Shown: positions 19,135 to 27,448 of the stretch, piece after piece
How positions within the stretch are numbered: position 1 is the first letter of the stretch
Layout of the letters: every line of letters starts with the position of its first letter
DNA from: Clostridia bacterium
GTDB taxonomy: Bacteria > Bacillota > Clostridia > TANB77 > CAG-508
DNA length: 64,000 bases
Direction of reading: 5' to 3'
Assembly: GCA_900758165.1 (NCBI GenBank)
Contig: CAAEQN010000114.1
Coordinates: forward strand, 9,809-73,808
Program-made: the position numbers and the translations under genes
The notes under the pieces: generated by a model
The model's database searches: none
Told to the model about the DNA's origin: nothing
Seen by the model: only the letters and a program-made list of their open reading frames with translations

Positions 19135-19671
19135 ATGAAAAGAGTAATTGGAAATATACTCATAACAATTTATGCAGTAATAGCAGTTTTTACAACAGTA
19201 TGCTTATTATCTTATAATGAGTACAAAATAAGTGAATTTGGGGATAATTCAATAATTTTAGTTACAAATGAAGAATTGGAACCAGATTTTCATAAAGGGG
19301 ATTTAGTAATAGTAAATTCTAAAAACAAGAATAAGACTAATATAGGAGAAAAAGTATTCTTCTATAATTCTCATGACAAAAAAGTAGATGTATCAGTAGC
19401 AAAAGTAACAAACAAACAAGTAATAACATCAACAGAAACAACATTTACATTAGAAGGAGATTATGACATTTCAAGTCAATATGTTATAGGACAAGCAAAT
19501 GGAGTTAAAGTTATATCAAAAGTTGGAGGAGTATTAAGTGTTATAGAATCTAAATGGGGATTTTTATTCTTAATAGTATTCCCTTCATTAATAGCATTTA
19601 TATATGAGATAACAGTCGTCTTTAGTGAAATAAAAGAAAGCAAAAAAGAAGACAAAAAAGATTCAAAATAA
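19135..19671 (+). CDS. SipW-like membrane protein lacking catalytic Ser/His (pseudo-peptidase)
   Basis: 178 aa with RBS AGGAGGA. It has N- and C-terminal TM segments like SipW, but the SMEP box reads NEELEPDFHKGDLVIV and the THR box reads VAKVTN. The GD box is retained as LEGDYD. Confidence 0.6.
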   Translation: MKRVIGNILITIYAVIAVFTTVCLLSYNEYKISEFGDNSIILVTNEELEPDFHKGDLVIVNSKNKNKTNIGEKVFFYNSHDKKVDVSVAKVTNKQVITSTETTFTLEGDYDISSQYVIGQANGVKVISKVGGVLSVIESKWGFLFLIVFPSLIAFIYEITVVFSEIKESKKEDKKDSK

Positions 19672-19681
19672 GGTAATATAA

Positions 19682-20335
19682 ATGAATAAAAAAATAATAA
19701 AAAAAATCCTAATTATAGCAATATTATTTATGATTTTATTAATGGCATATAAATTAATTAATACGTATGCCGTTTTTTATAGTGAAGCACAAGCAAAAGT
19801 TAAGCAAGAAAATGCAACCTGGACTATATATGTTAATAATACAAATATATCTTCACAAAATAGTAATCAATTTAATGTAGATACATTTGAAATAGAAGAC
19901 AATACACATGTAGCTCCAGGTAAAATTGCACCAAATACTAAAGGAAAATTTTATATAGTAATAGACCCAAAGGAAACTGATGTATCTGTAAAATATGATA
20001 TTAAATTAGATAAATCTCAATTAATCAACGACAAAATAGAAATAAGTTCAATTGCAATAGACGGAGAAAACACATTAATAAAAACAGGAGAAGATACTTA
20101 CACAGGAGTTATTATGCTAGACTCAATAAAGCAAGGTAGAGTGGACAAAATAAAGGTTACATTAGAGTGGGAAAACGATGAATCAAATAATGAAAACGAC
20201 ACTAAAATCGGAAGATATGTAAATTATAAAATGAAAATTCCAATTGAAGTTAAAGCTACTCAATATTTGGGAGAAAAGATAGAAGAATATATACCAAATG
20301 AAAATACAAATACACAAACAAATACAAATGAATAA
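19682..20335 (+). CDS. Secreted TasA/camelysin-like protein with SipW-type signal peptide
   Basis: 217 aa. The signal peptide ends ...LINTYAVFYSEAQA (compare the TasA/CalY T-x-A-x-F-x-D region). It is a clear paralogue of the 27471..28070 gene: ATWTIYVNNTNIS / SRWNITVNNASIK and APGKIAPNTKGKFYIVI / ASGVIAPTAEGYFDLNF. Confidence 0.65.
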   Translation: MNKKIIKKILIIAILFMILLMAYKLINTYAVFYSEAQAKVKQENATWTIYVNNTNISSQNSNQFNVDTFEIEDNTHVAPGKIAPNTKGKFYIVIDPKETDVSVKYDIKLDKSQLINDKIEISSIAIDGENTLIKTGEDTYTGVIMLDSIKQGRVDKIKVTLEWENDESNNENDTKIGRYVNYKMKIPIEVKATQYLGEKIEEYIPNENTNTQTNTNE

Positions 20336-20372
20336 TTGAAAAAATGTCCAATTAGGAGAAATTTATAAATAA

Positions 20373-20897
20373 ATGAAAGCTGTAAAGAAAATATTAGAAA
20401 TAATATTAAATGTTATTATTATACTTATATCTATAATGATAATTATTGTAATAATATATGCAATACAAACCAAAGTATTAAAGAAAAATGGTGCAACCAT
20501 ATTTGGATATACAGCGTTTGAAGTTGCAACAGGAAGTATGGCTGGAACTATTGAAATTGGGGACGTTGTAATAGTTAAATCAACCAAAGATATTAAAGCA
20601 AATGATATAATTGTTTATAAAGAAAATAATAATTTTATAACTCATAGAGCTTTGGAAATAAACGAAGATGAAATTATAACAAAGGGAGATGCAAATAATA
20701 CTACTGACCAGCCAATAGATAAAGAGCAAGTATTTGGCAAAGTTATAAAAATAATACCAAATGTAGCTATATGGAAAAAAGTACTAACAACACCTTCTGT
20801 ACTAATATCTGTAGTAATAACTATTGTCTTATTTGGAATAGCTATTTGTTATAATACATCAGACAATAAGCAAGAAAAAATTACAAAGGAGAAATAA
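20373..20897 (+). CDS. SipW-type signal peptidase I, catalytic residues present
   Basis: 174 aa. It has an N-TM, the motifs VATGSMAGTIEIGDVVIV, ITHRALEI and ITKGDANNTTDQP, and a C-terminal TM. Confidence 0.85.
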   Translation: MKAVKKILEIILNVIIILISIMIIIVIIYAIQTKVLKKNGATIFGYTAFEVATGSMAGTIEIGDVVIVKSTKDIKANDIIVYKENNNFITHRALEINEDEIITKGDANNTTDQPIDKEQVFGKVIKIIPNVAIWKKVLTTPSVLISVVITIVLFGIAICYNTSDNKQEKITKEK

Positions 20898-20899
20898 AA

Positions 20900-26154: not shown

Positions 26155-26183
26155 TTACAAAATACTTAAAAGGAGAAAAAACG

Positions 26184-26792
26184 TTGAAAAAATTATTAGA
26201 AAATAAAGCTTTAAAGATTATAGGAAATATTTTATATTATCTGCTAGTTATATTAGTTGTAATGATATTAGCTGTTGTACTTTTACAAAGAGTAACTAAC
26301 AACAATATAAGTTTAGCTGGAATAAGAGTTTTTAATATTGTAACAGAAAGCATGGTACCAAAGTATCAAGTTGGAGATATATTAATATCAAAGACAATAG
26401 AGCCAGATAAAATAAAAGAAGGCGACGATTTAGTATATCTAGGTAAAGAAGATTCTTTTAAAGATAAAATTGTAACACACCAAGTAATTAAAATAGAAAA
26501 CGAAAATGGAGAATATAAATTCCATACAAAAGGAATTGCAAATCCAGAAGAAGATCCAGTAGTATCTGAAAGCCAAATATATGGAATTATAATATATAAA
26601 ACTCATGTATTGAGCTTTATAAGCAAAATAATAAATAATTTATATGGATTCTATTTCTTAATATTTGTGCCACTTACAATTTTAATAATTGTAAAAGTAA
26701 TTAAATTACATAGAGAATATAAAGAAGAAAAAGATGCTAAAGAGGAAAATGAGAAAGAAGATAGAGAGGATAATAGTGGAAAAGAAGAATAG
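26184..26792 (+). CDS. SipW-type signal peptidase I, catalytic Ser/His present
   Basis: TTG start after AAGGAG. It has an N-TM, the motifs IVTESMVPKYQVGDILIS, VTHQVIKIE and HTKGIANPEEDP, a C-terminal TM and an acidic/basic tail. Confidence 0.8.
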   Translation: MKKLLENKALKIIGNILYYLLVILVVMILAVVLLQRVTNNNISLAGIRVFNIVTESMVPKYQVGDILISKTIEPDKIKEGDDLVYLGKEDSFKDKIVTHQVIKIENENGEYKFHTKGIANPEEDPVVSESQIYGIIIYKTHVLSFISKIINNLYGFYFLIFVPLTILIIVKVIKLHREYKEEKDAKEENEKEDREDNSGKEE

Positions 26793-27420
26793 AAGTAAAG
26801 AAGAAAATCTTAAAAATGATAATTCTAATAAACCTTTAAAAAAAGGTTTAAAAAGATATGTCAAACTTCATACTTTAATTATAATATTAATATTATTAAT
26901 ATTTAATTCTTATGCATGGTTTATTTATTTAACGAAAGCATCTGCAGGAATAACAGCACATGTTTCTTCATGGGACATTGCTTTTACTATAGACGAAACT
27001 CAACAAACTGGTAGTATATTAATAGATGTTGGTAATATATATCCAGGAATGGATACATATACAAAATCGGTAAATATAAGAAATTCAGGAGAAACAACGG
27101 CAGACATTACCTTTGAATATAAATCTTTTACAATATTAGGACAGACCTATACAGTAGATGAAAATTGTACTCAAGAAGAATTAAACAATAAGATTGCCAA
27201 TGATTATCCGTTTAAAATATCTGTAACATTGGATAAAAGTAGGTTAGATAAAGACGGATATAGTGTTTTTACAGTTAATGTATCTTGGAGTTATGAGTCT
27301 GGAAATGATACTGTTGACACTTATTGGGGAGAGCAATCTTATGAATATAATAAATTGCATCCAACAGAAAGTAGTTTAAAGTTAGAAATAAAATTAATAG
27401 CAAAACAAATAAACACATAA
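26776..27420 (+). CDS. Secreted TasA/camelysin-like protein with SipW-type signal peptide
   Basis: The track ORF starts at 26734, but a GTG at 26776 preceded by AGAGAGGA looks the better start. The signal peptide ends ...IFNSYAWFIYLTKASAG. The mature part carries SSWDIAFT, IYPGMDTYTKSVNIRNSGETTADITFEY and VNVSWSYESGND, homologous to the 19682 and 27471 proteins. Confidence 0.65.
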   Translation: MEKKNRSKEENLKNDNSNKPLKKGLKRYVKLHTLIIILILLIFNSYAWFIYLTKASAGITAHVSSWDIAFTIDETQQTGSILIDVGNIYPGMDTYTKSVNIRNSGETTADITFEYKSFTILGQTYTVDENCTQEELNNKIANDYPFKISVTLDKSRLDKDGYSVFTVNVSWSYESGNDTVDTYWGEQSYEYNKLHPTESSLKLEIKLIAKQINT

Positions 27421-27421
27421 A

Positions 27422-27448
27422 AAATCCCTCACATAAAGGGATTTTTTT
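27422..27448. terminator. Terminator hairpin between convergent genes
   Basis: AAATCCCT-cacataa-AGGGATTT followed by TTTT. It lies between the plus-strand stop (27420) and the minus-strand stop (27471). Confidence 0.7.

Follow-up and report, generated by a model that had tools for sequence, protein, structure and literature searches.

The stretch of Clostridia bacterium DNA analyzed here (64,000 nucleotides of contig CAAEQN010000114.1, hereafter the window) contains a block of ten plus-strand open reading frames (ORFs) at 19135-27420 in which SipW-type signal peptidases and secreted proteins are encoded together with a membrane-anchored GTPase of the McrB type. Every ORF of this block was found in the ORF listing at the position reported in an earlier note on the same DNA, and the genes are referred to in order as g1 to g10. 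The gene identities proposed in that note were largely borne out by family models, motifs and structure matches. The ten genes probably form an operon, as had been proposed, but the note did not capture the full extent of the unit, which is a larger locus at about 6740-30130 (~23 kb, 19 genes) with the ten-gene block at its centre. Three kinds of component are encoded: SipW-type peptidases, secreted protein families together with a giant protein, and a module at the cytoplasmic face made up of GTPase, McrC-like and EAL-fold proteins.

We compared the locus with 83 related loci, comprising the best 80 of 593 matching stretches (one genome per species) and three close relatives. The GTPase of the best 80 loci was 51-76% identical to the window protein, and these loci came mostly from gut and rumen metagenome-assembled genomes (MAGs) labelled Clostridium sp. 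CAG:567, Clostridia, 'Bacilli', 'Tenericutes', Ruminococcus sp. CAG:488, Acutalibacteraceae and Oscillospiraceae. ORFs were called in all 83 loci and then labelled by searches seeded with the window proteins; homologues of g10 are termed T10, and homologues of the products of the window genes at 28183 and 29168 are termed Td2 and Td3. Carriers of the gene cluster number at least several hundred genomes at species level, most of them gut MAGs. The GTPase has thousands of close metagenome homologues and matched 757 representative clusters at E <= 1e-30.

The membrane-anchored McrB-type AAA+ GTPase is encoded by g7 (23480-25006, plus strand) and has a transmembrane (TM) segment at residues 58-76, a charged heptad-like stretch at 86-125, coiled-coil-like at 90-125, and the GTPase domain at about 190-508. 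The protein aligned with Escherichia coli McrB (PDB 6ut6, E = 9e-4) across the Walker A, Walker B and signature motifs, and matched NCBIfam NF008457 and the PADLOC candidate PDC-M26A (2.5e-33). Among 16 diverse homologues the Walker A (G218-T225) and Walker B motifs, D289, the N349-x-D351 signature and several arginines were invariant; N349-N-D351 was kept in all of them, with D, E or Q at position 352. The GTPase was the most conserved gene of the cluster, with identities of 87/75/71/66% across four genome groups versus 28-79% for the other genes. This high identity, together with the invariant nucleotide-binding motifs, argues for a conserved working enzyme rather than an arms-race gene.

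The adjacent gene g8 (25021-26154, plus strand) encodes a protein with the McrC N-terminal domain (DUF2357, E = 7e-12) and a K/E-rich C-terminal tail in which 45% of residues are charged or Gln. Conservation among 79 homologues was confined to residues 40-135, which include a YENR motif, and 230-252. No conserved acidic triad was found in the 79 McrC-like sequences, nor any conserved acidic residue past residue 135, and g8 is therefore predicted to have no PD-(D/E)xK nuclease. No nuclease family was matched among the ten products in Pfam or NCBIfam. The long McrC-like proteins of the Oscillospiraceae reach 700-850 amino acids (aa), with charged tails of about 350 aa. We considered an EAL-like domain fused into these long DUF2357 proteins and rejected it, as the hhalign probability was about 0 and the extra sequence was a K/E/A/R-rich coiled coil.

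The locus as a whole contains five SipW-like genes, three active and two dead, of which the ten-gene block contributes two active copies (g3 and g9) and one dead copy (g1). These were scored with TIGR02228 (SipW / ER-archaeal-type signal peptidase I), which has a curated cut-off of 51.85 bits. The product of g3 (20373-20897, plus strand) scored 79.3 bits with Ser, His and Asp present, and that of g9 (26184-26792, plus strand) scored 82.2 bits and kept Ser and His but has Ile where the other active copies have their third conserved residue, Asp. This was not peculiar to the window copy: among 188 SipW-like ORFs, 59 belonged to the positional class of g9, with Ser and His kept and Ile, Val or Leu at the third Asp, and the consistency of this replacement suggests that the SipW following McrC is a distinct functional subclass. 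Upstream of the block lie a further active SipW-type peptidase (16688-17269, plus strand; 86 bits; Ser/His/Asp; N- and C-terminal TM segments) and a dead paralogue (17217-17813, plus strand; 35.9 bits; two TM segments). All of the SipW-like proteins have one N-terminal and one C-terminal TM segment.

Tjalsma et al. reportedly identified Ser and His as the catalytic pair of SipW in 2000. In g1 (19135-19671, plus strand) these positions are occupied by Glu and Asn and the SipW models gave 28-36 bits, below the cut-off, whereas the copy at 17217 has Leu and Ser in place of the catalytic Ser and His. Judged from their sequences, which fall short in score and lack the Ser/His pair, both are catalytically dead paralogues, or pseudo-peptidases. 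A dead SipW was the first gene in every locus which kept the ten-gene order.

The secreted products were compared with one another by HMM-HMM comparison (HMM, hidden Markov model) using hhalign, and their N-termini with TIGR04088, the model of the SipW-dependent-type signal peptide (cut-off 19 bits). The product of g2 (19682-20335, plus strand) has a SipW-type N-terminus (…TYAVFYSE…) with one TM segment, and its AlphaFold2 (AF2) model (pLDDT 75) was an all-beta sandwich behind an N-terminal helix. A secreted paralogue is encoded by g4 (20900-21472, plus strand; hhalign g2-g4 96.6% over 164 columns; N-terminal TM), and g5 (21489-22418, plus strand) encodes a 309-aa secreted protein with an N-terminal TM which is a distant relative of g4 (hhalign 89%, 147 columns) and in most loci lies directly upstream of the EAL-like gene. 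The product of g10 (26734-27420, plus strand; …NSYAWFIY…) is again a secreted paralogue of g2 (95.6%), and the closest paralogue (100% to g2, E = 1.5e-60) is encoded on the minus strand at 27471-28070, a position and orientation kept in most loci. The g2, g4, g10 and 27471 products are thus paralogues at about 96-100% by hhalign. The earlier note had set g4 and g5 apart as 'small secreted proteins'; they are of the secreted type, but the hhalign comparison places them in the same superfamily as the products it called TasA-like. Each of g2, g4, g5 and g10 has one N-terminal hydrophobic segment, and no Pfam or NCBIfam family was matched by any of these four.

Two further genes of this kind follow the block. 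The first (28183-28977, plus strand) encodes a protein that is either secreted or anchored in the membrane, with a TM segment at 53-71 behind a basic cytoplasmic N-terminal tail of 52 aa, and was the second most conserved gene in the locus (79/61/52/58% identity across the four genome groups). Its basic tail and second-highest conservation suggest that it may be the membrane-proximal contact to the cytoplasmic module. The second (29168-30130, plus strand) encodes a 320-aa secreted protein with a SipW-dependent signal peptide (…SSYAWFTSN…; TIGR04088 19.7 bits) and the C-terminal motif W-x-EGQDVDC-x-N in its family alignment (A5); genes of this type occur in most loci, frequently in several copies. 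The 28183 and 29168 products aligned with each other over the C-terminal 37 columns (hhalign 93%). A C-terminal motif R-V-Y-M-W-x-E-G-Q-D-V-D-C-E-N is common to both, and it matched no known family.

A Y-A-x-F N-terminal motif was recognized by eye in the g2, g10 and 27471 products, none of which matched the TIGR04088 model. Taken as sequence signals, this motif and the TIGR04088 match of the 29168 product support a predicted SipW dependence of the secreted proteins. Among the fold matches of the g2 model, AbpA bundling pili (7ueg) stood at rank 2 (E = 3.9e-3), the TasA fibre (8aur) at rank 5 (1.2e-2) and cannulae (9h8b) at rank 25, with TM-scores of 0.33-0.38 for AbpA and the TasA fibre. It is plausible that the secreted proteins form fibres. 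In the 87%-identical relatives L001-L003 the g2 orthologue (6299-6923) is split into ORFs of 84 and 132 aa, and the 132-aa form was also seen on many metagenome contigs (P0449-P0453); this recurrence of split ORFs suggests that, in these relatives, the g2 paralogue is decaying or can be dispensed with.

The gene between the secreted proteins and the GTPase, g6 (22442-23440, plus strand), encodes a cytoplasmic protein. Its AF2 model (pLDDT 85.5, pTM 0.83) comprised an N-terminal helical bundle (residues 1-148) and a C-terminal alpha/beta domain of EAL-like fold (about 150-332). When this model was compared with the PDB by Foldseek, each of the best 37 matches was an EAL domain. The E values began at 2e-4 (Bd1971 2e-4; FimX ~1e-3, including complexes of the FimX EAL with cyclic di-GMP (c-di-GMP)), the probabilities were mostly >= 0.9 and the target TM-scores were 0.43-0.51. 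The 'degenerate EAL' of the earlier note was thus borne out at the level of the fold. At the level of sequence g6 had no Pfam, NCBIfam or PDB match, and Pfam EAL (PF00563) gave none at E <= 10. Sub-threshold Pfam EAL matches were obtained for 4/36 homologues (best E 0.013), a further Pfam run on ten homologues gave zero EAL matches, and the family profiles A1 and A7 found no EAL in the PDB. The residues conserved in alignment A7, which combines standalone and fused forms, were Y41, F155, S184, G195, K201, Y226, K237, K240 and G280. There was no invariant acidic residue across the forms in A7, and E205, E229 and D288 were not kept in the fused forms, which argues against catalysis. As modelled, g6 is an EAL-fold pseudoenzyme.

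The ten genes are tightly packed, with 10, 37, 2, 16, 23, 39, 14 and 29 nucleotides (nt) between successive genes from g1 to g9. With ATG 26734 as its start, g10 overlaps g9 by 59 nt, and with GTG 26776 by 17 nt; the 17-nt overlap given in the earlier note therefore holds with the GTG, which may be the true start. Purine-rich Shine-Dalgarno-like motifs lie within 25 nt upstream of eight of the ten starts, and no clear motif of this kind was found in the 25 nt upstream of g2, or of g10 at ATG 26734. Promoter and terminator sites were located by a consensus scan of the window. On the plus strand the scan found no terminator-like site inside the block, in agreement with the earlier note. After g10, where that note had placed a terminator at 27422-27448, the scan on the minus strand located a terminator-like hairpin with a 12-bp stem at 27421-27450, the sequence of which (AAAAAATCCCTCACATAAAGGGATTTTTTT) was read directly together with its flanking A-run and T-run. 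With g10 on one side and the gene at 27471-28070 converging from the other, the hairpin is probably bidirectional.

Upstream of g1 a promoter-like site, TTGAAA-17-TGnTATATT, was located on the plus strand at 19049-19077, with 10/12 consensus matches and a TG extension. The site is sigma-A-like in appearance, and in L002, L004, L007 and L008 its motif is found again ahead of the orthologue of g1; this recurrence in relatives favors a single promoter for the block. At 19061-19101, at a distance of 34 nt from the start of g1, lies an AT-rich hairpin (AAACTGTAT…ATACAGTTT) with a run of seven T behind it, which shares positions with the conserved promoter's -10 region. A leader attenuator at this hairpin was considered and rejected, as it overlaps the promoter and is not kept in related species. 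Rfam searches found neither a c-di-GMP riboswitch nor any other Rfam family in the window. That the ten genes are one tight block is supported.

The exact ten-gene order was found in 16 species-level genomes with GTPase identities of 65-76%, and an arrangement which recurs in this way is far beyond chance. Across the wider set the McrC-like gene lay directly after the GTPase in 82 of the 83 loci, an active SipW was present in the locus in 80 and a dead SipW in 50; the SipW gene directly followed McrC in 61, and the order McrB-McrC-SipW-T10 was kept in 57. The earlier note had allowed that the AAA+ pair might never occur with SipW genes in related genomes; the counts of 82/83 for the pair and 80/83 for active SipW show the reverse. 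A variant order, Td2-Td3-SipW-McrB-McrC(long)-Td3…, was seen at 17 loci, mostly from Oscillospiraceae-type MAGs, and the minimal core in the Oscillospiraceae is Td2-Td3-SipW-McrB-McrC. In the apparent exception L081, proteins with …ATYAYFQA… signal peptides are encoded right after McrC, and the contig then ends. A GTPase only 33% identical to the window protein (P0267) was still flanked by Td2/Td3-like genes and SipW.

Two kinds of fusion protein join components of the locus. These were verified with a clean HMM built from the EAL-like family alignment A1 and with phmmer. In 11 species (L050, L051, L054, L055, L060, L062, L063, L065, L066, L067 and L079) an active SipW (SM…THR…GDAN) of the g3 type is fused through a C-terminal TM segment and an acidic linker to a complete EAL-like domain. 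These SipW~EAL-like proteins are 633-756 aa long, matched the clean A1 HMM at E = 1e-23 to 1e-39 and Pfam S24/S26 on the N-terminal part, and are encoded directly upstream of the GTPase, with the gene ending at about 10000. They bear out the assignment of the EAL-like gene to the SipW/secreted-protein cluster. The second kind was found in L080, a Ruminococcus MAG, where DUF2357 is connected through a long charged coiled coil and a TM segment to an active SipW in one protein of 998 aa (9828-12824). Fusions and TM topology together argue for an action of the cytoplasmic proteins on SipW, or jointly with it, across the membrane. In the species with SipW~EAL-like fusions the T10 homologue is about twice as long (~400 aa).

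The remaining genes of the locus lie mostly upstream of the block. At 6740-8317 (plus strand) a 525-aa cytoplasmic protein, B525, is encoded, which has no Pfam or NCBIfam match and no hydrophobic segment; in 23 related loci a homologue adjoins the cluster on its upstream or downstream side. It is followed by the giant secreted repeat protein (8321-16656, plus strand), in which an N-terminal anchor (TM 23-41) precedes 'AFRNS'. In the window this gene is split into an ORF at 8321-11599, a stretch of ~500 nt in the third frame and an ORF at 12100-16656. The frame changes near 11600 and 12100, and the repeat motif (…NINISGGT…IYG.G.GG…) runs across both junctions. An unbroken giant protein of at least 3093 aa is encoded at the same position in L002/L003, and homologues were found in 31 loci. 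Two frameshifts, whether errors or mutations, would account for the breaks; alternatively the gene is decaying. Between the upstream SipW pair and g1 a 328-aa cytoplasmic protein with no Pfam or NCBIfam match is encoded divergently (17832-18818, minus strand), and has the same position in 11 related loci.

The host is a low-GC (26.6%) spore-former. The locus has spo0A and yabG (4449-6550) as neighbours on one side and pyrG, rqcH, ftsK and the RNase J gene on the opposite side. These housekeeping and sporulation genes place it, as a locus that is not mobile, in the core chromosome rather than in a defence island. In the 87%-identical relative L001 an insertion sequence (IS) element with rve integrase and helix-turn-helix (HTH) transposase genes (2969-5554) replaces the giant protein and the upstream SipW pair, as compared with 1-4540 of L002/L003. 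Close relatives have veg, sipL and yunB directly downstream of the locus instead of pyrG. The IS insertion and the differing flanking genes indicate that the locus has been rearranged between close relatives.

A class of systems to which this locus can be assigned has been named. Bell et al. (eLife 2024, PMC11090510) described an NxD branch of the McrB GTPases with a large clade that carries an FtsB-like TM and coiled-coil fusion, and reported, in one paragraph which deferred to a 'forthcoming publication', that this clade is linked to proteins of the signal-peptidase family and named it CoCoPALM. In the same paper the NxD signature is usually followed by D or E, the adjacent McrC homologue (DUF2357) usually has a coiled coil, the McrC N-terminal domain is stated to plug the McrB hexamer in McrBC, and CoCoNuT denotes predicted immune systems within the NxD clade. 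The earlier note knew of no described case in which an McrB-clade motor is built into a SipW operon; the association had by then been named, and the finding is not categorically new. The NxD(D/E) motif, as described in that paper, makes the locus a member of this named, uncharacterised class. Full-text search for literature joining SipW with McrB gave nothing relevant, and CoCoPALM was used in this sense in no other paper found.

What the window shares with CoCoPALM is the NxD McrB with a TM and coiled-coil-like N-terminus, the adjacent DUF2357 protein with a charged tail and the SipW genes. It adds the dead SipW, the EAL-fold protein, the two kinds of fusion, the secreted families and the giant protein, which are absent from the main text of PMC11090510; the supplements were searched for five terms only, with no occurrences. 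CoCoNuT systems (types I-III) resemble it in a GTPase domain which is about 35-45% identical, in the NxD motif, in an McrC that is often without an active nuclease and in coiled coils. They differ in being soluble and in having HEPN or other nucleases, helicases and TerY-P triads; the present locus has none of these, is membrane-anchored and is linked to secretion. With E. coli McrBC the likeness extends to the AAA+ GTPase fold and motifs, which align with g7, and to the McrC N-terminal domain of the partner, whereas here a TM anchor replaces the DNA-binding N-domain, the signature is NxD rather than NxxD and no PD-(D/E)xK nuclease is present.

Among fibre operons, Bacillus subtilis tapA-sipW-tasA and Clostridium perfringens sipW-bsaA-bsaB-bsaC likewise have SipW beside secreted substrates with a …Y/W-A-x-F… motif, but they have a single peptidase and no genes for a GTPase, an McrC-like protein, an EAL-like protein or a dead peptidase. 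In C. perfringens the SipW-processed BsaA oligomers are membrane-anchored and their secretion needs some type IV pilus-associated genes (PMC11580942). The archaeal AbpA bundling pili and cannulae were among the better fold matches of the g2 model, although weak ones (E >= 4e-3). In type IV pili a degenerate EAL domain regulates the hexameric pilus ATPase through FimX-PilZ-PilB. The locus is similar in that an EAL-fold pseudoenzyme gene lies beside that of a hexameric NTPase, with the FimX EAL among the top fold matches of g6; it differs in having no GGDEF or PilZ partner, in that McrB is not of the PilB family, and in the fusion of the EAL-like domain to a signal peptidase in some species.

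We consider it very probable that the genes make up one integrated system of the CoCoPALM type. On balance we lean towards a surface-fibre assembly system in which the cytoplasmic GTPase controls or powers SipW-dependent processing. Under this proposal the secreted subunits would be exported by Sec and kept membrane-anchored by their N-terminal hydrophobic segment. The SipW paralogues would then cleave the subunits, and the freed N-terminal strand could engage the next subunit to give a surface fibre or matrix, as in donor-strand fibres of the TasA/AbpA type, while the dead SipW copies might hold or anchor uncleaved subunits. On the cytoplasmic side the tethered McrB-like hexamer, plugged by the McrC-like N-domain as in McrBC, would hydrolyse GTP and act on SipW via its C-terminal tails and TM helices, the EAL-like protein possibly serving as adaptor, and so gate or drive processing and the hand-over of subunits. 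TM segments were found across the products only where this assembly model requires them. That the GTPase has a motor or gating role at all is a tentative suggestion, which we rate as somewhat less likely than not; that an NxD McrB hexamer with a nuclease-less McrC plug is specifically a GTP-driven motor, coupled to SipW via TM helices, coiled coils and an EAL-fold adaptor, is possible and no more likely. BsaA secretion in C. perfringens and FimX-PilZ-PilB may serve as functional analogies for such a mechanism. The 'energy-dependent assembly machine' of the earlier note is accordingly kept as something that we infer, in common with fibre production, the action of the GTPase on SipW and the direction of control.

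Several results weigh against the assembly of fibres by this machinery. To our knowledge the characterised fibres of the TasA superfamily, including the archaeal ones, polymerise outside the cell without any NTPase, which leaves a motor without an obvious task. In the Foldseek search of the PDB no match of the g2 model reached 1e-3, and the AbpA and TasA matches were interleaved with cohesins, pilins, BslA and generic beta-sandwiches. No Pfam or NCBIfam match to the TasA/camelysin (Peptidase_M73) family was obtained among the eight secreted proteins, and profiles of the g2 and 29168 families (A4, A5) found no TasA in the PDB. Of the 'TasA-like' label in the earlier note there remain the weak fold matches of g2; membership by sequence or profile does not stand. 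The EAL-like gene is absent from the Oscillospiraceae variant of the locus, which indicates that its product is not essential to the core mechanism. In a more distant TM-anchored branch (L084-L086) two McrB-like paralogues flank a 555-aa DUF2357 protein (L084 6988-11503; L085 6964-11569), and next come genes for a transglutaminase-core protein (~900 aa) and a protein of 1439 aa. SipW was not detectable at these loci; this branch may be a different membrane-linked McrBC derivative. Finally, the GTPase has its nearest relatives among predicted immune systems (CoCoNuT; PADLOC PDC-M26A).

The last point bears on the main rival explanation, in which the locus is an immune or conflict system: an McrBC-derived module would sense infection (phage on a fibre receptor, or envelope damage), upon which SipW and the secreted proteins would shed or remodel the surface or release an effector. 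The CoCoNuT predictions for members of the NxD clade and the PDC-M26A match both favor it, as does P0300, a 796-aa soluble GTPase homologue (40% identity) encoded beside a TerY-P triad, a UPF1-like helicase and a 768-aa DUF2357 protein, which is a CoCoNuT-type context. The flanks which vary between close relatives and the IS element inserted in L001 also count in its favor. However, no nuclease, HEPN domain or other recognisable effector was matched among the products, and of all genes in the locus the GTPase evolves most slowly and is not diversifying. The synteny is stable across Clostridia families and 'Bacilli' MAGs, the neighbours are housekeeping and sporulation genes, and the GTPase family is essentially absent from viral contigs (three remote partial matches among 2.9 million). 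Weakened by the missing effector, the conservation pattern and the housekeeping context, an immune role is in our judgement improbable. The earlier note had offered a defence module nested in a fibre operon as its alternative, and the conserved synteny with SipW genes and the cross-module fusions speak otherwise. The same evidence bears on pure coincidence, that is, an independent McrBC-like cassette inserted into a SipW/secreted-protein operon. The modules do occur apart elsewhere, as sipW-tasA without a GTPase and as McrBC or CoCoNuT without SipW; yet the adjacency is kept in nearly every locus down to 51% identity and in the one 33%-identical case, the modules are joined by two kinds of fusion, and the genes are tightly spaced with no terminator between them. 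Coincidence is effectively refuted by the synteny and the fusions, and we give it almost no credence.

The other two explanations retain a surface structure and differ in how it would be controlled or where it would be built. A fibre machine regulated by c-di-GMP, in which the EAL-like protein binds the nucleotide like the FimX EAL and switches the GTPase and assembly, would suit the FimX EAL-c-di-GMP complexes among the top fold matches, the weak Pfam EAL matches of a few homologues and the position of the gene directly upstream of the GTPase. It would also correspond to the 'possible cyclic-di-GMP sensor' of the earlier note. That suggestion fared poorly: there was no significant HMM or profile match to EAL, the target TM-scores were low, the candidate acidic metal-binding residues E205, E229 and D288 are unconserved in the fused forms, the window has no c-di-GMP riboswitch and the Oscillospiraceae variant lacks the gene, so that we regard this form of regulation as unlikely. 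Less likely again is a sporulation-linked structure, such as a spore appendage or surface layer, with an FtsB-like anchor targeting the sporulation septum or forespore membrane. The host forms spores, the genes for Spo0A and YabG lie directly upstream in the window and those for Veg, SipL and YunB directly downstream in close relatives, and the N-terminal GTPase anchor has been called FtsB-like (PMC11090510). Adjacency to sporulation genes is nevertheless unconserved across relatives, the conserved promoter has a sigma-A-like look, and Pfam DivIC/FtsB was matched in only one of 16 g7 homologues (E = 0.012), with a weak NCBIfam AmaP-anchor match instead. We retain as the best reading a surface-fibre assembly system that would be under GTPase control.

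McrBC is the textbook DNA-restriction motor, and here its GTPase core is found without DNA binding or nuclease, with a membrane anchor and within a secretion cluster. If the module drives or gates assembly, SipW/TasA-type fibres could no longer be assumed to be energy-free, and the locus would illustrate the way in which an immune motor is taken over for envelope biogenesis. On the motor reading, subunit processing and donor-strand polymerisation in these monoderm gut bacteria would depend on nucleotide hydrolysis; this would be the first NTPase-dependent fibre of the SipW/TasA type, and a clear case of a motor from a restriction enzyme enlisted to build the cell surface. From the fusions SipW~EAL-like and McrC~SipW, interacting protein pairs can be predicted in a system known so far by name only. 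Abundant uncultured gut Clostridia may owe a major surface structure to the locus, which would then be relevant to adhesion, biofilm formation and phage receptors in these organisms.

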